64,000 nucleotides of DNA from an uncultured Candidatus Saccharibacteria bacterium (GTDB taxonomy: Bacteria; Patescibacteriota; Saccharimonadia; Saccharimonadales; AWTP1-31), in assembly GCA_964629815.1 (NCBI GenBank), contig CAZVTA010000001.1:189226-253225 (forward strand). The letters are read 5' to 3'. Position 1 is the first letter of the stretch; each line of letters opens with the position of its first letter. The position numbers and the translations under genes are program-made. The notes under the pieces were generated by a model. That model did no database searches. It worked only from the letters and a program-made list of their open reading frames with translations, and was not told where the DNA came from. Below are positions 5,405 through 28,597 of this stretch, piece by piece.

Positions 5405-5788
5405 TTAGGCGAGTTCGACAGTAGCACCTGCTTCTTCGAGGGCTTTTTTAGCTGCTTCTGCGTCTTCTTTCTTTGCTTTTTCAAGCACAGTTTTTGGAGC
5501 GCCGTCTACAACAGCTTTTGCTTCACCAAGACCAAGACCAGTAAGTTCTTTTACTGCCTTGATGACTGCTACTTTTTGTGCACCAGCGTCTTTAAGAACG
5601 ACGTCAAATTCGCTCTTTTCGTCTGCTGCAGCTGCAGCGCCATCGCCACCAGCTGCTGGAGCAGCTACGACAGCAGCGGCTGCTGCTGGCTCGATGCCAT
5701 ATTCTTCTTTGAGGATTGTTGCAAGTTCGTTAACTTCTAATACAGTAAGACCAACGAGCTGTTCTGCAAATTTCTTTAGATCTGCCAT
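5405..5788 (-). CDS. rplL: 50S ribosomal protein bL12 (L7/L12)
   Basis: [34 protein letters not shown], Ala-rich hinge, conserved C-terminal domain. The track ORF starts at an upstream GTG (5818); ATG 5788 fits the family N-terminus. Confidence 0.95.
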
Positions 5789-5926
5789 TGTTAGTTCGCT
5801 TCGCTTTTTGAAGGACACCTACGGTTTCCCTCAACGCGCCGGGTAAAAAACGCGATTTTTACTCGGGCTGCTCTCTTCCCTGTGAAGTGAGCAAAACGAA
5901 ACTCTCCTTTCTATAGATTAATTATA

Positions 5927-6448: not shown

Positions 6449-6657
6449 GGAATATTGTTCCCTTCACTGTTATTCGAAAACCGTATCGACCGTTTGGTTC
6501 TCACGTTACCTGCAAATAAAAATGCCTCTGGCTAAGCCAAAGACATTAATGAGTATGCGAAACTAATGTTTCTACCTCGGTAGCATGTTTAAGCTGTTTC
6601 CAGCCGCTACTGTCTTTGGTAACGATACAAGTATTTTACCTCTGTTACGGATTATTG

Positions 6658-19032: not shown

Positions 19033-19560
19033 ATGAAGAAGCTCAAAATCCCCGCAGACATTCCAAAAAATAAAATGCAACTCGCCAAAGAGATGCATCG
19101 TCTACACGAGAGCTGCCTATATAGCAGCCAAGGTCAGTTTGAGTTAGGAAAGCAGTGGCGATTGAATAATATTTTGCTGGGAGTACCGGCATCTATATTG
19201 GCCGCATTAGCAGGTAGTGTGGGCCTTGCTCAAGATGATAAGACGCTGCTTCCTCCGATATTAGCACTACTATCTGCTGGATTTGGGGCGGCACTAACAA
19301 CTTTAAATCCATCTAGGCGAAGTGAATTGGCGCAAATCGCAGGAAACAGTTATTTAGAGATACAAACAGCAGCAAGACAGTACATACTGGTTGACCTGAA
19401 AGATATGGATAATACCAAGGCAAGACAAAAACTAGACGAACTAACTACTAAGCGAAATAAAATCAACAAAACTGCAGACCCACCTAACAGGCTTGCTAGG
19501 TTTATGGCAAAACGCATTATTGACGGTGGCGGACAGGACTACTCAATTGACGAAAAATAA
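19033..19560 (+). CDS. SLATT-like two-transmembrane effector protein (175 aa)
   Basis: Helical N-terminal region, two adjacent hydrophobic helices (ILLGVPASILAALAGSVGLA, LLPPILALLSAGFGAALTTL), then a helical C-terminal region. Translationally coupled (TAATG) to the downstream nucleotidyltransferase. Family call is by architecture and context only. Confidence 0.6.
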   Translation: MKKLKIPADIPKNKMQLAKEMHRLHESCLYSSQGQFELGKQWRLNNILLGVPASILAALAGSVGLAQDDKTLLPPILALLSAGFGAALTTLNPSRRSELAQIAGNSYLEIQTAARQYILVDLKDMDNTKARQKLDELTTKRNKINKTADPPNRLARFMAKRIIDGGGQDYSIDEK

Positions 19561-20432
19561 TGGCTACAACTGTTGCACAAGCATTTAATGAGTTTAAAGA
19601 TAAGATTAAACTGACAAGTTCTCAAGAAGAAACGGTTAGAAATCGCCGCCAAACTGCTCATAATTATCTTGCTAGTCATTTTGACAGCACATCAACAATG
19701 CCGCTTTTACGTACTACACTTATCGGTTCCGCTCAGCGAGACACAATAATTCGTCCGTTAGACGATATAGATATACTTGCCGTATTTGAGAATAAAGAAC
19801 ATATATTTGAAACATACCGGAATGATTCCTTTGCTTTCATTAACAGGGTGAGGAACGCCCTCAACCAGTATGAAGTACAGCTTGTAGGTACTAGAGGTCA
19901 GGCTGTCAGGCTTTTTTACCAAAATCGTCCACACGTAGATATTGCACCCGTTTTTAAATGGTCAACGGGTGGATACGGGTTGCCTGATGGCAGTGGTGGC
20001 TGGATAACAACTGACCCCGATTTTCACCTTCAATGGATAAATACAAAAAACCAAGAATTGAATTACCGCTTAAACCCAATTATTAGAATGATTAAGCGAT
20101 GGAATAATACTTACGAGACAAAACTTAAGTCATTTCACTTAGAAATGATGGTAGCCAATACATTTACGAGTTTGGGTAACGATAGCCGAGAGGCACTCGA
20201 AATGTTTTTTGATTCCGCTCCATCACTAATGCGAACGATTGACCCTTCTGGTAGAGGTGGAGATTTATCTGTATACCTCACGGCGACCAACAGACAGTTA
20301 ATTACTAATAGATTTAACAGGTATAAGAATAAGTGTGCGGAAGCAAACCGTCTTGAAATCAACGGCAACCACCGAGACTCAATTGAAAAGTGGCGAGAAA
20401 TATTCGGGAATGATTTTCCGACTTACGGCTAA
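19560..20432 (+). CDS. SMODS/CD-NTase-like nucleotidyltransferase (290 aa)
   Basis: Pol-beta NTase signature: G56-S57 (LIGSAQRDT), D69-I-D71 (PLDDIDILAVF) and a third acidic residue D127 (HVDIAPVF). The N-terminal helix AQAFNEFKDKIKLT is typical of SMODS-type proteins. Confidence 0.7.
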   Translation: MATTVAQAFNEFKDKIKLTSSQEETVRNRRQTAHNYLASHFDSTSTMPLLRTTLIGSAQRDTIIRPLDDIDILAVFENKEHIFETYRNDSFAFINRVRNALNQYEVQLVGTRGQAVRLFYQNRPHVDIAPVFKWSTGGYGLPDGSGGWITTDPDFHLQWINTKNQELNYRLNPIIRMIKRWNNTYETKLKSFHLEMMVANTFTSLGNDSREALEMFFDSAPSLMRTIDPSGRGGDLSVYLTATNRQLITNRFNRYKNKCAEANRLEINGNHRDSIEKWREIFGNDFPTYG

Positions 20433-20558
20433 ATGAAAAATCATACGTCCATACTTTCAAATGTAGCAAGTCTCTTGGTGTAATCAACTACCTTCCCCAT
20501 AGTTATCATTTCAGTTTTAATGCTGTTCTGTCTCTCCATGCGCATCGCTGCAATAGCC

Positions 20559-20583
20559 AGTTCGATTCCCGTGTTTCCTGCCA
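20559..20583 (+). other. tRNA 3'-end-like fragment (possible attachment-site remnant)
   Basis: AGTTCGATTCCCGTGTTTCCTGCCA matches 16 of 25 positions of the tRNA-Trp 3' end (GGTTCGACTCCTACTACCCCTGCCA), including the T-loop core and the terminal CCTGCCA. It cannot fold as a T arm. Confidence 0.3.
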
Positions 20584-20743
20584 GTTCAATTTTCGATCAA
20601 TGTAACAGAACTCCCTTTCTACTAGTTTCGATCATCATCCACTAGCCTCGCTTTCATGCAGAGCAGTTCAGTTACTTACAATCGATAATCATCATTTGGC
20701 TGCCGACAGGTATCGTACTAGCATTTATAGTAGAGACAGGGTT

Positions 20744-20772
20744 TTGACAATTCTAGTTAAAGCTTGTACGAT
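20744..20772 (+). promoter_or_regulatory. Sigma70-like promoter TTGACA-N17-TACGAT
   Basis: Motif reading; ATG of the mini-ORF lies 6 nt downstream. Confidence 0.45.
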
Positions 20773-20778
20773 TCGTGT

Positions 20779-20823
20779 ATGAGTATGTTTTGCTTGCATA
20801 TAGTACCGCCCACGCCTCGTTGA
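20779..20823 (+). promoter_or_regulatory. Candidate leaderless leader peptide MSMFCLHIVPPTPR (Pro codons CCG CCC .. CCT)
   Basis: Own reading. Followed by GGGGC (possible antiterminator partner of the GCCCC in the terminator 5' arm), terminator 20875-20899, then the SD GAAGGA and ATG 20922 of the glutamate-5-kinase-like gene. Confidence 0.35.
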
Positions 20824-20874
20824 CCCGGGGGCTATGATAGTGCAAAAAAATAACGAATAATACGAAACAACAGA

Positions 20875-20899
20875 ACGGCCCCACGGGTCGTATTTTTTT
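20875..20899 (+). terminator. Rho-independent terminator
   Basis: ACGGCCC-CAC-GGGTCGT followed by ATTTTTTTCTGTTTG. An A-rich 5' flank (CGAAACAACAGAA) can extend the stem. Confidence 0.75.
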
Positions 20900-20921
20900 C
20901 TGTTTGTTTCGAAGGAATAGC

Positions 20922-21797
20922 ATGGAGAAAAAAGAATTAACAATTATAAAAGTAGGCACCGGTGTAATTGCTAATCGGCAAAGAACAGCGATTGATTATA
21001 CTGCCATGGCATCGATTGGGCGCGATATTGCACGTATAGAAGGCCGCGAGCGTAAAGACGAAAAAGTTTCTACATTGGACCATGAAGGTTCGGTAATTTT
21101 GGTTAGCTCTGGTGCGGTTGCTGCCGGAAAAGAAAAACTTGGCATGAACGGTTCTGATGTTTGTAATACGCGCCAAAAGCAAATGGCAGCCATGGTTGGA
21201 AATACGGCACTTTTTGGGTTGTGGGAGGCTGCAACCGGTATAGTTGTAGGCCACGACTTGCCCACTCATAATGATCTTGAGCTGCAAGAGCATTGGGACA
21301 ATATGGTTGGTGTTATTGCAACTAACTTAGAGTACGGCGTTTTGTCTGGTTTTAATGAAGGCGATGTACGCAGTACTGAAGAGCTCGAAACAAACGTGCG
21401 TGCCGCCGGCCGGCAATTTAAACGTTTCGGTGACAATGACCAGCTAGCCGCCATTATTGGCGTGCAGATTGGTGCGTTTGCAAAAAGTTTTGTAGGTCAG
21501 TCAACGCGCGTAATATTTCTGACCAATACAAATGGAGTGCTCGAAGATGTGCGGAGGCCCGATTCTCGTATAGATGAGCTACGATACAAAGATATCGATG
21601 AAATTATTGAGCAATGCTTGCACGACGAAACAGCAGATATTAGTAATGGCGGTATGCTGTCTAAATTGCTTGCTGCAAAGCAGCTGGTTGGTGCCGGCGT
21701 GTCGGTAAGTATAGGCGCGGGAAAAAATGCTTCTGGTCGCCCTTTGCTCGATTTGTATAATCGGGTAGAACATGTGGGCACACACATACTTGCATAG
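20922..21797 (+). CDS. proB: Glutamate 5-kinase-like amino-acid kinase (no PUA domain)
   Basis: IIKVGTGVI, VILVSSGAVAAGKEKLG, KQMAAMVGN..LFGLWE, FGDNDQLAA, LTNTNGV and SNGGMLSKLLAAK align with ProB motifs. ATG 20922 has SD GAAGGA. Confidence 0.7.
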   Translation: MEKKELTIIKVGTGVIANRQRTAIDYTAMASIGRDIARIEGRERKDEKVSTLDHEGSVILVSSGAVAAGKEKLGMNGSDVCNTRQKQMAAMVGNTALFGLWEAATGIVVGHDLPTHNDLELQEHWDNMVGVIATNLEYGVLSGFNEGDVRSTEELETNVRAAGRQFKRFGDNDQLAAIIGVQIGAFAKSFVGQSTRVIFLTNTNGVLEDVRRPDSRIDELRYKDIDEIIEQCLHDETADISNGGMLSKLLAAKQLVGAGVSVSIGAGKNASGRPLLDLYNRVEHVGTHILA

Positions 21798-21844
21798 TCG
21801 ACCATGACGCTTATGCTTGCTATACTCTGTATAGAAAGTTAGTA

Positions 21845-22570
21845 ATGGCCAAACAGAAAAAGTACAAATTCCGACTCAGTAGCCACCGATTGATTGTTGT
21901 CGCGGACAAAATTTTGTTAATTCGCCTGCTCCGCAGTTTGAACGGAAGGTTTTGGGGCGTATTTGGATTGTTTGTGCTGTATGTAAGCTTGGCGATTTGT
22001 TTTTCAATTCGGCCCGAGCTTCGGGTTTGGTCTACCGCATTTAGCGACTTTGGCACCGATATCAAGACAACAACTATATTTTCGTTTGGGCTGTTTGTGT
22101 GCGGGTATGGGTTGTGGCGATGGCGAAACTACTTGGTGCAGTCATCGAAAACAACAGGCCTTGTGCTAATTAGCCTAACTGCAATTATTATTGGGGCGTA
22201 TTTGGTCGCTCTTATGCCCATAAATATTAATGATCGCATAGATGACCTGCACTATTTTGGATTCTTTCTTGGCGGTGGTGGCATGATAGCTACAGTCATG
22301 GTTGATATGCTCCTAAGAAAGGTCAAAAAAGGTGGCAACCGTATGTACTGGCAGTTATTGCGCTTCGTTTCGTTACTGCTAATTGTTGCAGGTTTGGTGG
22401 TGACGCTGTTGTCGCACCAGCGCTTTGGTGGCAAGATGGATCATGCTTTGCTTGGTGAGTTGCTGGTGTTGAGTGGCTTTGGATTATGGGTGGTTATACG
22501 CACAATTCAAGGCGAAGGTGTTAAAACAAATTTTTCGAGAGTGCTTGGGAAAGTGCTCATCGTTGATTAA
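21845..22570 (+). CDS. Multi-pass membrane protein (241 aa)
   Basis: ORF-track ORF with about six hydrophobic helices. An extended -10 TGCTATACT lies upstream. No family assigned. Confidence 0.6.
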   Translation: MAKQKKYKFRLSSHRLIVVADKILLIRLLRSLNGRFWGVFGLFVLYVSLAICFSIRPELRVWSTAFSDFGTDIKTTTIFSFGLFVCGYGLWRWRNYLVQSSKTTGLVLISLTAIIIGAYLVALMPININDRIDDLHYFGFFLGGGGMIATVMVDMLLRKVKKGGNRMYWQLLRFVSLLLIVAGLVVTLLSHQRFGGKMDHALLGELLVLSGFGLWVVIRTIQGEGVKTNFSRVLGKVLIVD

Positions 22571-22579
22571 TTGTACTGG

Positions 22580-23500
22580 CTACCCAACAACAAAACGACC
22601 CATTTGAATACCAGCGGGGTTTGCAGTATACAGTTCGATGAGGCTATCCTCTGTGTCAATGAATAAACCCGCTGCCATATTTGAATTGGTGTTCTTCGGG
22701 TCAATATCGAGCATGGCACGAACCTCAGTTAGCTCCATAAGATTACTGTCTGAAACGAACGCACCTAGTTCATAGAGTGTGTAGTAATATGTCAATGCAT
22801 CCACGAGAGTGGCGGCCCGTACAGCGGGGTGTTTTGCTTGTAGATCGTGTAGCATTTCTTCTTGAACGGATACTGACCCATACGTTCCGGGGGTGTATTT
22901 GGTGGGGATAATACTAAAATGTATATATTTTGGAGTATTGTATGCAGGAAGTCGAGGATTGCGAGTTAGCGGTGTCCCAAAGGCGCGGTCGCATATTTTT
23001 GCATACACGCCGAGCTTGAGAGCAAATTCTTTAGTTGCATGAGCGATGGCGTTTAGGGGCGGTTCAATTGAGGGGGCTGCAACCAGTACAAAATTCGCGT
23101 CGGGGTTGATTGCTCGGGCGGAGTCGATTTTTTCCTGACTGAACCATGCATCAAAGGCTTGCTCTATCTCAGGACCAGTGAGTGTTCCATAGTCCTCCAT
23201 ATAAAATCTGTTGTCGTGGCGATCGGGCCGATAGGAGGCAAAGGCTTTTACAGTTTCTCGATAGCCCGTATGTGTAAAAATGAGCTGCTCACGCAATGAT
23301 TCTTTTGTAAGCGCTTCCCCGGCAATACCTAAAGTCCGATTATTGTTGTCGAGCGTGTTGGCTATGTCGATTGAGCCGGGCGTTAAAAGACCGCGTTCTA
23401 CGGCAACTGCAGCTAATTCACGCAAAGACGAAACAAGCCATTCATCTGGCTGTGTGCGTACATCGAGTGTGGTGCCTTCAGCTTCTAAGGGGATCTCCAT
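22580..23500 (-). CDS. Hypothetical protein (306 aa)
   Basis: ORF-track ORF. ATG 23500 with SD GAGGT is preferred over the track TTG at 23527. No family recognised. Confidence 0.6.
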   Translation of the reverse strand: MEIPLEAEGTTLDVRTQPDEWLVSSLRELAAVAVERGLLTPGSIDIANTLDNNNRTLGIAGEALTKESLREQLIFTHTGYRETVKAFASYRPDRHDNRFYMEDYGTLTGPEIEQAFDAWFSQEKIDSARAINPDANFVLVAAPSIEPPLNAIAHATKEFALKLGVYAKICDRAFGTPLTRNPRLPAYNTPKYIHFSIIPTKYTPGTYGSVSVQEEMLHDLQAKHPAVRAATLVDALTYYYTLYELGAFVSDSNLMELTEVRAMLDIDPKNTNSNMAAGLFIDTEDSLIELYTANPAGIQMGRFVVG

Positions 23501-25571: not shown

Positions 25572-25648
25572 TGGAGCCGGCAGAGGGATTCGAACCCACG
25601 ACCTACGGTTTACAAAACCGCCGCTCTAACCAACTGAGCTATGCCGGC
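25572..25648 (-). tRNA. trnT: tRNA-Thr (anticodon TGT), CCA-encoded
   Basis: Manual cloverleaf of the reverse complement: acceptor GCCGGCA/TGCCGGC, anticodon arm GCGGT-TTTGTAA-ACCGT, T loop TTCGAAT (one U-U mismatch in the T stem). Confidence 0.85.
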
Positions 25649-25717
25649 GAGGTTAACAGTAGTAAAGTGTAGCAAAAACCGAAGAAATTTGCTACTATAT
25701 TTAGGTTGATTGGTTTT

Positions 25718-25803
25718 GCAGGGATAGTGAAGCGGTCAAACACGGCAGACTGTAAATCTGTTGGCATTCGCCTTCGGGGGTTCGAATCCCTCTCCCTGCA
25801 CCA
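25718..25803 (+). tRNA. trnY: tRNA-Tyr (anticodon GTA), long variable arm, CCA-encoded
   Basis: Acceptor GCAGGGA/TCCCTGC, anticodon arm GCAGA-CTGTAAA-TCTGT, variable arm TGGCATTCGCCTTC, T loop TTCGAAT; 86 nt. Confidence 0.9.
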
Positions 25804-25861
25804 CACACTAGAGCATTAGGGATGTTAGAACTTTTCAATAGCTAACGTTATATCAGACATT

Positions 25862-26230
25862 ATGAAGTACGTCATTAGGTCAATATTCAGGCCCATCTCA
25901 AATCGTCACTATACCAATAAAAAAGTGAGTGCTGTTTTGTATGCATTAAGCTTCTTCCCCGGAATTTTGATTAGTCTATTCGGGGCAATTGCTGTTGATT
26001 CATTTTTCTGGTTCGTACTCATTGCTTTAGTGTTGTATGGATTTATAGATTATATTGTGTTTGATGCATTTTTAGATAAATTAAGTTGGAAATTATTTTG
26101 GCGTCACTTTTACTCAGATGAAGTCTATGAGCCCACACAAGAATATGATGTAATGAAAGCTTATGAATCAGATCCAACTGAAGAAAATTATCAAGCACTT
26201 CAAAAACATCTAAAAGACAAGTGGCTTTAA
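25862..26230 (+). CDS. Hypothetical membrane protein (122 aa)
   Basis: ORF-track ORF with two hydrophobic helices, in an AT-rich stretch. Confidence 0.5.
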   Translation: MKYVIRSIFRPISNRHYTNKKVSAVLYALSFFPGILISLFGAIAVDSFFWFVLIALVLYGFIDYIVFDAFLDKLSWKLFWRHFYSDEVYEPTQEYDVMKAYESDPTEENYQALQKHLKDKWL

Positions 26231-26299
26231 TTAGTGGATGCTATTAAAGTGGTTCTAGCAGCGTAGATTATGCTGCATCACACCCGGTAAGTATTAAGA

Positions 26300-26327
26300 G
26301 TGTTAGATTAAATCTAACACTCTTTTG
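26300..26327 (+). terminator. Hairpin terminator (perfect 9-bp inverted repeat)
   Basis: GTGTTAGAT-TAA-ATCTAACAC followed by TCTTTTGTT; overlaps the promoter region of the next gene. Confidence 0.6.
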
Positions 26328-26343
26328 TTATACTAACCGTATC

Positions 26344-26829
26344 ATGACGAAGTTATTTATTAGACATAGTCTTTCAGAAGCAAATAACCGTGAGAATTAT
26401 GGCACTCCCGCTTTTGGCAGCGCGCGTGTGGGACTTATGCCCGAAGGATGGGAACAATCTGCAAAGATGGGTCGTGTATTAGAGGATAATTATGGAATCG
26501 ACGTGACCACCGAGCCGGTGGCAGTATCTACTTTGTTGCGTACTCAAGAAACGGCCATTGGTGCAGGTTTTGAAAATTTGATAGTTTATTCTTGCTTGGA
26601 CGAAGAAAAAGGCACTATGAATGACATAGAGACAAGATGGGCGTTGGATCATCGCCTATCACCTGAAGCAACAATCAAAGCCGCTCGTTATATTATTGCT
26701 AATACACCCGAAGAAAGGGTAATAATTACTCACGCATATATAATTGCGACCATCTGTCAGCAGCTTGGTCTGTATACGGACGCAAAGTTTACACCAAAGT
26801 TCTGCGAAATCAGAGAGTTGCCATTGTAG
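26344..26829 (+). CDS. Histidine phosphatase superfamily protein (phosphoglycerate-mutase-like)
   Basis: 161 aa with N-terminal LFIRHSLSEAN (an RHG-like catalytic motif). Extended -10 TGTTATACT lies 9 nt upstream of the ATG with no SD. Confidence 0.55.
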   Translation: MTKLFIRHSLSEANNRENYGTPAFGSARVGLMPEGWEQSAKMGRVLEDNYGIDVTTEPVAVSTLLRTQETAIGAGFENLIVYSCLDEEKGTMNDIETRWALDHRLSPEATIKAARYIIANTPEERVIITHAYIIATICQQLGLYTDAKFTPKFCEIRELPL

Positions 26830-27030
26830 CCAGCAGCCTTACCAACGGGCTTTATAAGCATAAGCGAGATGCCGACATTGATAGCCCAAAAGTTAGGTAT
26901 CATGAAGGGGCGCATTACGCACTTAAGATGGCAGTAAGTGGCTTAAGCCATATCATGAAAACAACTGGCTAGCTCATACATTGTGAATTAGACGTTGCAT
27001 GACTTGTGCTCATGCCTATACAGTATAAGT

Positions 27031-28470
27031 ATGGGCGAGGTGTTGCACGAAAAATGTGCAGTTGTGGGCGTGGCAGATGCAAGCGGTGAACAGCGACTCG
27101 CTGCTGCTCTTACTCATATGGGTTTGTTTACGCTACAGCATCGTGGCACCGAATCTTCTGGAATCGTTTCGTCTAATGACGGCGGGTATCTTCAAAAACA
27201 TCATGGCTTTGGGCTTGTTAAAGATGTTTACGCTATTGATGACCTCATGAAGCTCGAGGGAGATGTTGCGGTTGGTCAAAATAGATATGCAACTAACGGC
27301 GGCAAGAAAGATAAAAAATACATCCAACCATTTTGGTATTTAAGTACAGGCATATCGTTTGGCCACAATGGAAATTTGCCAGATACAGATAGACTTGAGC
27401 AACATCTAAGGCAAAGGCGAGTTAGAACTGAAGACATGAATGACTCGCGAATGATGGGCGCACTCATAAACGAAAATATTCGGGTTGCCGATGATGTATT
27501 GGGTGCCGTAGCCCAGTCGACAGAATTTTTCGACGGTGCATATTCGTGCGTTACTTCGCATGATGGCTGGCTGGTTGGCTTTCGTGATCCGTTTGGTATT
27601 CGACCACTTGCGATTGGTAGGCTAGATAATGCGTATGTTATTGCTTCAGAAAGCTGCGCCCTGGACACCATGAACGCCGAGTTTGTGCGAGAAGTTGAAC
27701 CAGGCGAAATTGTAGCAACAGATGGCAAACAGATAATTTCGAAACGGTTCGCCGAAGCCACACCAAAGCTTGATATGTTTGAGTTTGTTTATTTTGCACG
27801 TCCTGACAGTGTATTAAACGGCAAAGTAGTTGACCAGGTGCGCAGGAATTTTGGTAAAACACTTGCAGAACAATTTTCACCAAATGCAAATAGAGCAGAT
27901 AACGTAGTGGTGGTACCGGTGCCTGCAACGTCTGTTCCAGTTGCAGAGGCTTATGCAGAGGCGCATGGCATACCAATGCGAAGCGCAATTGTGAAAAGCA
28001 GTTATGTTGGCCGTACGTTTATCGCACCAGAGCAGCAAGTGCGTGAAGTCGAACTGAGCCTCAAGCATAATCTGATGGAGCATTTGATCAAGGGTAAGGA
28101 TGTGATATTTGTTGATGATTCGATTGTACGACTCAACACGATTCCGGCATTAGTAAGAAGGGCTCGTGAACTTGGTGCGCGAACAGTCTCGGTACTGATT
28201 TCGTCGCCTCCTGTACGCTTTCCTGATTACTATGGAATTGACACTCCCCTTCAGGCTGATTTAGCGGCAGCAAATATGACCGTTGAGGAAATGAGACGAC
28301 AGATAGAAGGTAACAGGCTTGGCTTTCTTTCTGTTTCTCAGACGGTAGAAGCAACTGGGCTACCGTTTAGTAGTTTCAATCTGTCTCCGTTTACGGGGCA
28401 TTACCCAATTCCTATTGGAAAAAATCAATACGAGATTTATTCACCAGCCAGCATGGAATATGTGGATTAG
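27031..28470 (+). CDS. purF: Amidophosphoribosyltransferase
   Basis: Ntn Cys after a short propeptide (MGEVLHEKCAVVGV), LQHRGTESSGI, and a PRTase motif VIFVDDSIVRLNT. ATG 27031 is preferred over the track TTG at 26995. Confidence 0.9.
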   Translation: MGEVLHEKCAVVGVADASGEQRLAAALTHMGLFTLQHRGTESSGIVSSNDGGYLQKHHGFGLVKDVYAIDDLMKLEGDVAVGQNRYATNGGKKDKKYIQPFWYLSTGISFGHNGNLPDTDRLEQHLRQRRVRTEDMNDSRMMGALINENIRVADDVLGAVAQSTEFFDGAYSCVTSHDGWLVGFRDPFGIRPLAIGRLDNAYVIASESCALDTMNAEFVREVEPGEIVATDGKQIISKRFAEATPKLDMFEFVYFARPDSVLNGKVVDQVRRNFGKTLAEQFSPNANRADNVVVVPVPATSVPVAEAYAEAHGIPMRSAIVKSSYVGRTFIAPEQQVREVELSLKHNLMEHLIKGKDVIFVDDSIVRLNTIPALVRRARELGARTVSVLISSPPVRFPDYYGIDTPLQADLAAANMTVEEMRRQIEGNRLGFLSVSQTVEATGLPFSSFNLSPFTGHYPIPIGKNQYEIYSPASMEYVD

Positions 28471-28522
28471 ATCAACTTACTCTCCACAAAAAGTGTATTA
28501 TCTGGTAAAATAGTGCGGTTGC

Positions 28523-28597
<75 letters not shown>

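Follow-up and report, generated by a model that had tools for sequence, protein, structure and literature searches.

Why would an ultra-small bacterium place a short proline-rich open reading frame (ORF) and an intrinsic terminator between a promoter and the gene for a glutamate-5-kinase-like enzyme? This arrangement is found in the window analysed here, a 64,000-nucleotide stretch of DNA from an uncultured Candidatus Saccharibacteria bacterium, where it begins at position 20744 of the plus strand and leads into the kinase gene. The original prediction held that the segment is a candidate proline attenuator. We compared the segment with the corresponding segments of related loci and folded the leaders with and without a parked ribosome. 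The results indicated that the leader is probably a transcription attenuator of the ribosome-mediated (leader-peptide) type that relies on Pro codons and would control the glutamate-5-kinase-like gene with proline as its presumed physiological signal. In silico, the architecture is conserved, the mini-ORF carries a coding signature, two mutually exclusive helices are maintained with compensatory changes, and the spacing from Pro-Pro to the switch is fixed. The elements on which the argument depends are as follows.

20744..20772, plus strand: sigma-70-like promoter (TTGACA at 20744-20749, 17-nucleotide spacer, TACGAT at 20767-20772)
20779..20823, plus strand: putatively leaderless mini-ORF MSMFCLHIVPPTPR and its TGA stop codon (ATG at 20779, TGA at 20821-20823)
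20806-20808, 20809-20811 and 20815-20817, plus strand: Pro codons of the mini-ORF
20822..20833, plus strand: 5' strand of the antiterminator, GACCCGGGGGCU, which begins inside the stop codon and pairs with 20877-20889
20824-20832, plus strand: post-stop segment CCCGGGGGC
20834..20862, plus strand: A-rich spacer forming the antiterminator loop, poorly conserved beyond its ATG
20875..20891, plus strand: terminator hairpin ACGGCCC-CAC-GGGTCGT (-9.6 kcal/mol), both arms of which are the 3' partner of the antiterminator
20892..20899, plus strand: U-tract AUUUUUUU, where premature termination is predicted
20911..20916, plus strand: Shine-Dalgarno sequence GAAGGA of the kinase gene (GGAG or GGAA at this place in relatives)
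20922..21797, plus strand: glutamate-5-kinase-like amino-acid kinase of 291 amino acids, ATG at 20922

The promoter, the mini-ORF, the post-stop segment, the hairpin with its U-tract, the Shine-Dalgarno sequence and the ATG of the kinase all lie exactly where they had been predicted, and the hairpin at 20875-20891 is followed by ATTTTTTT up to position 20899. The genomic surroundings were taken for 12 members of the kinase clade, and one more locus, L096, was added by a DNA-pattern scan of metagenomes with an RNA-only pattern, to which it was the single match. Ten distinct leaders from six lineages, the leader of the window included, share the module, and the kinases behind them are 48–63% identical to that of the window. 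The order of promoter, mini-ORF, complementary segment, terminator, Shine-Dalgarno sequence and kinase is the same in all ten, with different genes on either side. A profile of the element matched only upstream of this kinase in the 1.08 Mb of DNA searched, with a single match in the window. The module is thus more than a random small ORF, as had been proposed, because it recurs in nine further distinct leaders and, in the DNA searched, is confined to this kinase.

The leader was absent at four remoter homologues with 39–50% identity (L092, L094, L097 and L101). At L094, the kinase gene lies 28 nucleotides behind another gene and is apparently operonic. When 77 canonical proB loci were searched for a Pro-Pro mini-ORF with a terminator, one weak case was found (L037), and therefore the arrangement is not general to proB. 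A protein-pattern scan of genome contigs yielded canonical ProB at 25–35% identity and no close relative, and a 16-mer scan of viral contigs gave nine matches, all of them due to chance and without ORF or terminator context. Rfam 15 returned nothing but chance snoRNA and miRNA matches for positions 20433-20960 at E <= 10, and at gathering scores it recognised only the L10 leader and tRNAs in the whole window, with no T-box, amino-acid leader or riboswitch. As a separate observation, loci L103 and L102 encode an identical kinase (P0010); upstream of position -17, the sequence of L103 (1-121) is unrelated to that of L102 (1-258) and has no leader. L103 is either a natural variant without the leader module or a chimeric scaffold.

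The leader peptides encoded by the mini-ORFs were as follows.

Window: MSMFCLHIVPPTPR
L081 and L104: MNKFMVINLTPPTPR
L088: MNKFMTINLTPPAPR
L099: MYKFMIINLTPPTPR
L089: MNKLMFTSIVPPTPC
L085 and L096: MFKLQFSCIAPPSPR
L090: MRQRSDIQIVPPLPM
L102: MNLLKSVSLSPPTNLLHRGYVKY

The mini-ORF is 14–15 codons long in nine of the ten leaders. Two adjacent Pro residues are kept in all ten, with variation of their codons (CCG, CCC or CCT for the first; CCC, CCA or CCG for the second), and a third Pro follows two codons after Pro-Pro in nine. Two places before Pro-Pro, every leader has Ile or Leu, and directly before it stands a small residue (V, T, A or S). The N-terminal residues drift, and the sole indel is one codon long and in frame. 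In the last five codons, the numbers of extra states at codon positions 1, 2 and 3 were 5, 4 and 10, respectively. Between the two closest leaders, L085 and L096, four codon differences were synonymous and none was non-synonymous (P about 0.002). The C-terminal PP[TSA]PR and the TGA-C context are near-identical in seven leaders; across the ten, the last residue varies (R, C or M), the stop codon is TAA in L090, and in L102 it is displaced 8 codons downstream. Synonymous change of the Pro codons, the in-frame indel and the codon-position pattern together point to translation of the mini-ORF. The check proposed with the original prediction, namely conservation of the Pro codons in relatives that keep the terminator, thus came out in its favour: the mini-ORF and its Pro-Pro are retained in all ten terminator-bearing leaders, with synonymous drift of the Pro codons and drift of the other residues. 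Two antisense ORFs on the minus strand (20725-20943 and 20753-20959) were set aside as incidental products of the palindromic leader sequence.

In none of the ten leaders does the mini-ORF ATG have a Shine-Dalgarno sequence in front of it. All ten have a -35 box of the TTGAC[AG] type, a 17-nucleotide spacer and a TAnnnT -10 box that ends 6–10 nucleotides before this ATG. In the window, the leader promoter is the top promoter match within 19500-22600 (10 of 12 positions), and 6 nucleotides separate the end of the -10 box from the ATG. At the usual distance of 7 nucleotides from the -10 box, transcription would start on the A of the ATG itself. From the position of the promoter, the mini-ORF is predicted to be leaderless or nearly so, and it would lack a Shine-Dalgarno sequence because it begins at or beside the transcription start. 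With a leaderless start, the lack of a ribosome-binding site in front of the mini-ORF is no longer an obvious objection.

The second part of the evidence is structural. In all ten leaders, a 7-bp GC-rich terminator stem with a loop of 3–4 nucleotides is followed by a T-tract; the stem is 100% paired across the ten sequences and has one compensatory pair. As antiterminator, a pairing of GGGGC with GCCCC in the 5' arm of the terminator had been proposed. This pairing is supported, but its extent had been understated: the strand UGACCCNGGGGCU, 12–13 nucleotides from the stop codon on, pairs with both arms of the terminator and sequesters them in a helix of 12–14 bp. This helix has an energy between -22 and -28 kcal/mol in most leaders and of -17.6 kcal/mol in L102, compared with -9.6 to -12.8 kcal/mol for the terminator alone. 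In the window, the duplex of 20822-20833 with 20877-20889 has an energy of -26.2 kcal/mol, and only 13 of the 127,968 windows of 16 nucleotides in the 64-kb sequence pair with the terminator that well. RNAalifold, given the alignment alone and unprompted, returned the antiterminator as consensus (columns 47-58 with 104-117 of alignment A3). The antiterminator is 96% paired with three compensatory pairs, and control pairings in which the partner was slid by 1–3 columns were 38–57% paired. In L102, a joint change in three columns (54 G>A, 108 C>U and 113 G>A) retains both the antiterminator and the terminator pairs, a triple change that is predicted by two alternative pairings of one strand. The Shine-Dalgarno sequence of the kinase lies outside both alternative helices, and no sequestration of the downstream ribosome-binding site was found.

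We then placed the ribosome on the leaders by folding them with the nucleotides beneath a parked ribosome held unpaired, assuming a footprint of about 15 nucleotides as in Escherichia coli. With the first or the second Pro codon in the A site, the antiterminator was the minimum-energy fold in all ten leaders (-17.6 to -28.2 kcal/mol), and its advantage over the terminator was 10–15 kcal/mol. Once the A site held the stop codon, the antiterminator strand was covered and the terminator was the only one of the two helices that could form (-9.6 to -12.8 kcal/mol). In accord with these findings, the second Pro codon, counted from its first base, is separated from the strand's core by exactly 18 nucleotides in each of the six lineages, including L102 and L090. 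The antiterminator energy, which the original prediction had named as a weak point if negligible, is therefore substantial by both the RNAalifold consensus and the masked folds. The conserved module, the alternative helices and the ribosome-mask folding support the interpretation as a Pro attenuator, with refinements. A further helix had been proposed between the Pro codons and the G run (the 1:2 helix of classical attenuators), and here the prediction found no support: a 5-bp CCUCG:CGGGG pairing, which joins the third Pro codon and the codon after it to the G run, can be drawn in most leaders, but compensatory changes are lacking and shuffled sequences do as well. Because the 1:2 helix is unsupported and seven of the ten leaders favour the antiterminator when free of ribosomes, the ribosome is read as the blocking agent, and it is likely the ribosome itself, lying on the strand or passing over it, that permits termination.

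The switch is proposed to work as follows. Transcription would start at or within a few nucleotides of the mini-ORF ATG, and a 70S ribosome would load on the 5' end without a Shine-Dalgarno sequence. Should this ribosome stall while Pro1 or Pro2 occupies the A site, its leading edge would come to rest just short of the antiterminator strand; the free strand would capture the terminator arms as they emerge, no terminator would form, and the polymerase would enter the kinase gene. If Pro-tRNA(Pro) is plentiful, the ribosome would reach the stop codon and cover the strand. In L102, with its displaced stop codon, the ribosome would traverse the segment and likewise cover the strand. Once the strand is covered, the terminator hairpin and U-tract would form, and transcription would end about 120 nucleotides from its start. 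The weak UGA-C stop context may lengthen the occupancy of the strand by the ribosome. Both transcription-translation coupling and the ribosome footprint would take part in this switch.

The regulated gene is monocistronic. Its product contains the Pfam AA_kinase domain (PF00696, E = 7e-15), and a PDB search with it retrieved glutamate 5-kinases only (E about 1e-13). The kinase keeps the NE.D and GDND.L motifs and the equivalents of the catalytic Lys in the PDB alignment, positions that are invariant in the clade. The equivalents of E. coli K10, SGA, N134/D137, D148-N149-D150, T169 and K217 were aligned and are clade-invariant, and we take the roles of these residues to be the same as in the E. 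coli enzyme; glutamate is the presumed substrate. A 12-residue insertion precedes the GDND motif, and no PUA domain was found in the kinase. The clade is small, with about 17 clusters at 39–63% identity, several of which bear the label Candidatus Saccharibacteria or Patescibacteria, and a wide gap separates it from canonical ProB (~30% identity). The description of the enzyme as ProB-like is consequently only partly upheld: the motifs and the PDB matches bear it out, whereas the family score given below and the lack of a proA or proC neighbour do not.

Several points weigh against control of this gene by a proline attenuator. The best NCBIfam match of the kinase is proB (TIGR01027), with 87 bits, which is below the curated cut-off of 186. 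No ProA or ProC was detected by tblastn in the window and the loci of 24 relatives (flanks of about 150 kb, and 217 kb in all), in comparison with 46 of 80 canonical proB loci in which tblastn detected ProA. Saccharibacteria are generally held to be amino-acid auxotrophs, and inducing the kinase on proline shortage would be sensible only if the rest of the pathway is encoded elsewhere. Pro-Pro stalls ribosomes for causes besides tRNA charging, such as dependence on EF-P. The transcription start, the premature 3' end and the translation of the mini-ORF are all predicted from sequence. The leaders represent only about six independent lineages, so compensatory changes are few (4 cells). Ribosome-free folding gave the antiterminator in seven of the ten leaders and the terminator in the window, L089 and L096, and therefore the default state of an untranslated leader varies among lineages. 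Lastly, folding of the single sequence was no better than that of shuffled sequences (z = -0.93 for 20779-20905 and +0.23 in a second run), so the case rests on comparison with relatives.

The dependence of Pro-Pro on more than tRNA charging leads to the first rival, in which the RNA switch is the same but its signal is polyproline handling (EF-P activity or modification, or general elongation capacity), and the kinase is induced whenever Pro-Pro is slow. We regard this as unlikely, although it fits several features of the peptide. What is invariant is two adjacent Pro residues, not mere abundance of Pro codons, and the fixed Ile/Leu and small residue before them form the kind of context that tunes Pro-Pro stalling (PMC12856214, PMC8129111). 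The kinase also has no neighbouring proA or proC that would bind it to a proline pathway. On the other hand, the sole detectable relatives of the kinase are glutamate 5-kinases, as expected of an amino-acid-specific attenuator (compare trp, his and leu), and no link between the kinase and EF-P was found. The layout, in which three codons separate the tandem regulatory codons from the stop, is shared with E. coli trpL, where tRNA charging is sensed.

The near-identity of PP[TSA]PR and TGA-C in seven leaders, together with the four out of four synonymous differences between L085 and L096, could instead reflect selection on the nascent peptide. In such a TnaC-like mechanism, the nascent ...PPxPR and the weak UGA-C would hold the ribosome at the stop codon when a ligand (free proline or another metabolite) is present, so that the strand is covered and transcription terminates; with scarce ligand, quick release would allow the antiterminator to form and the gene to be on. 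Since ribosome-free leaders mostly fold into the antiterminator, termination would need long occupancy of the stop codon anyway, which suits this mechanism. But the last residue (R, C or M) and the stop codon (TGA or TAA) vary, the peptide drifts freely over its N-terminal two thirds, and in L102, where the stop codon is 8 codons away, Pro-Pro and its spacing to the strand are nevertheless kept. Ligand-induced arrest at the stop codon is accordingly quite unlikely.

A third rival concerns the terminated product. The promoter, the mini-ORF and the terminator might be an independent small gene for a short RNA or a micro-peptide, with the kinase expressed by read-through or from its own promoter. 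A terminated product of about 120 nucleotides would be a discrete RNA, and there are attenuator RNAs, such as rnTrpL, that act in trans (PMC6614838). The leader also contains a covarying outer stem around the terminator, which would be in keeping with such a gene and whose strands in the window are as follows.

20863..20874, plus strand: 5' strand of the outer stem, CGAAACAACAGA, 12 nucleotides before the terminator stem, pairing with 20899-20911
20899..20911, plus strand: 3' strand of the outer stem, UCUGUUUGUUUCG, 13 nucleotides, ending at the first base of the Shine-Dalgarno sequence

The outer stem brackets the terminator and the U-tract; the sequences of its strands differ by lineage yet remain complementary. 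Cognate flanks paired with a mean energy of -12.0 kcal/mol and non-cognate flanks with -6.1 kcal/mol, and of 720 permutations only the true assignment was as good. Among the leaders, the stem ends at the Shine-Dalgarno sequence or 1–4 nucleotides before it. Because its 3' strand lies past the termination point, the stem is possible only in read-through transcripts, in which it may stabilise the mRNA, direct its processing or insulate the Shine-Dalgarno sequence. As for an independent small gene, the unit is always joined to this kinase despite varying neighbours and occurs nowhere else in the 1.08 Mb. No promoter-like site was found between the U-tract and the kinase ATG, where the 22–30 nucleotides are taken up by the outer stem and the Shine-Dalgarno sequence, and a covarying antiterminator would be purposeless in a stand-alone gene. 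We consider this rival very unlikely. The hairpin as a terminator of the upstream gene was ruled out, since the upstream genes differ in relatives and the conserved promoter intervenes.

A metabolite-binding riboswitch with an incidental ORF would also explain why a metabolic gene is preceded by two helices that exclude each other, but it is extremely improbable, given that no Rfam family matches even at E <= 10, that no conserved unpaired core exists beyond the two helices (the spacer is A-rich and variable), and that the three-base periodicity, the in-frame indel and the ATG conserved at the transcription start indicate translation.

A more unusual role of the kinase is also conceivable. As an orphan without ProA and ProC in reduced genomes, the enzyme might have acquired a new function, for example the supply of gamma-glutamyl phosphate to a salvage or host-dependent route, with the Pro-Pro leader sensing polyproline translation stress or host-derived proline instead of providing feedback to a proline pathway; the outer stem and a second ATG might add a further layer, through refolding or processing of the read-through mRNA or through termination-reinitiation. 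This picture as a whole is improbable, if not negligibly so. The second ATG (20834-20836; columns 59-61 of A3) directly follows the antiterminator strand and is kept in nine of the ten leaders; the ORF that it opens has 3–8 codons and a variable sequence. One may speculate that termination-reinitiation at this ATG would keep the ribosome on the switch.

In the literature searched, no Pro-codon leader attenuator on a proline-biosynthesis gene and no leader-peptide attenuation in Patescibacteria have been described. If the interpretation as a proline attenuator is true, this leader would be the first leader-peptide attenuator in that literature to join proline codons to a proline-pathway-type enzyme, and no earlier ribosome-mediated attenuator would have been noted in the candidate phyla radiation. 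The existence of such an attenuator would imply tight transcription-translation coupling and leaderless initiation in ultra-small bacteria. The leader would also provide independent regulatory evidence tying a divergent kinase to proline, a link that is unexpected where the organisms are thought to import all amino acids and that raises the question of whether these lineages keep proA and proC. Much of the interest lies in why apparently auxotrophic ultra-small bacteria retain a proline-gated glutamate-5-kinase-like enzyme without visible partners. The element is compact (about 180 nucleotides) with a clear switch, and could serve as a proline- or translation-responsive part.

Turning to the surroundings of the module, a pair of genes of the SLATT (NF033632) and SMODS/CBASS-cyclase-like types lies directly upstream in the window (19033-20432, plus strand), and looks like a minimal anti-phage signalling system. 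Relatives do not have SLATT and SMODS at this position, and therefore the pair was probably inserted. Between the SMODS gene and the leader promoter, about 310 bp (20433-20743) have no ORF of at least 60 amino acids, and neither ARAGORN nor Rfam detected an RNA gene there. A string resembling a tRNA 3' end is present at about 20560-20590; a tRNA or tmRNA was considered for the string GGGGGCUAUG, and ARAGORN found none. At L081, a tRNA-Gln gene (5580-5653) is followed 153 nucleotides on by a repeat of its 3' end at 88% identity (5783-5808), which abuts the -35 box of the leader, and similar tRNA relics occur in L099 (about 40-68) and L088 (about 2660-2690). With copies of tRNA 3' ends at the leader promoter, the kinase module is therefore taken to occupy an integration scar linked to a tRNA. 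A tRNA-Thr/tRNA-Tyr/tRNA-Thr cluster is found both in the window (25572-28597) and in L085 (4296-5768), in each case a few kb downstream of the kinase, and this shared cluster is residual synteny amid otherwise different neighbours. An ORF with a myo-inositol-1-phosphate synthase domain (PF01658; 24046-25191, minus strand) lies near the kinase and is unusual for a reduced genome. Of cis-regulatory RNAs, Rfam recognises a single one in the window, the ribosomal protein L10 leader (6508-6637, minus strand; 80 bits).

Among known systems, the leader most resembles the classical attenuators trpL, hisL, leuL, pheL and thrL, with which it shares a short ORF with cognate codons, an intrinsic terminator, an antiterminator that excludes it, and a switch decided by the position of the ribosome. 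The trpL peptide of E. coli has 14 residues; its regulatory codons stand in tandem at positions 10-11, and another three codons precede the stop. The geometry of the window leader is close to this, with 14 residues, tandem codons at 10-11, and then three codons and the stop. Unlike the classical attenuators, it has Pro as the amino acid, a predicted leaderless ORF, a strand that pairs with both terminator arms and no supported 1:2 pause or anti-antiterminator hairpin; its host is Saccharibacteria-like, from the candidate phyla radiation, and its target is a single gene instead of an operon. The kinase shares the amino-acid-kinase fold and the ProB-type motifs with ProB, and differs from it in its score (87 versus 186 bits), the lack of a PUA domain, the 12-residue insertion and the absence of a proA neighbour. 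In Bacilli, Pro-specific T-box leaders read the charging of tRNA(Pro) and control proBA by termination and antitermination. In contrast to these, the leader described here is Rfam-negative, and it would sense proline through the ribosome and not by direct tRNA-RNA binding.

The closest precedents with Pro codons are the Salmonella leaders mgtP (of mgtCBR) and mgtL (of mgtA), where translation of conserved Pro codons, as proposed here, alters mRNA structure and downstream transcription. The Pro-codon ORF mgtP reacts under conditions in which Pro-tRNA(Pro) is expected to fall (PMC3641672), and the mgtA leader uses Rho (PMC12856214). Those leaders, unlike the present one, govern genes for Mg2+ transport and virulence and are long and multi-signal; there is no sequence or structural similarity between them and this leader, for which Rfam returned nothing. 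The closest leaderless precedent is that of short ORFs rich in cysteine codons, which form a 'Cys ribulon' in mycobacteria, where they are amino-acid attenuators that work through ribosome pausing (bioRxiv 10.1101/834739). Like them, the mini-ORF lies at the predicted 5' end of the transcript, is rich in the codons of one amino acid and would steer a gene for the metabolism of that amino acid. The mycobacterial ORFs act on translation, whereas the leader of the window opposes an intrinsic terminator to an antiterminator and leaves the Shine-Dalgarno sequence of its gene free.

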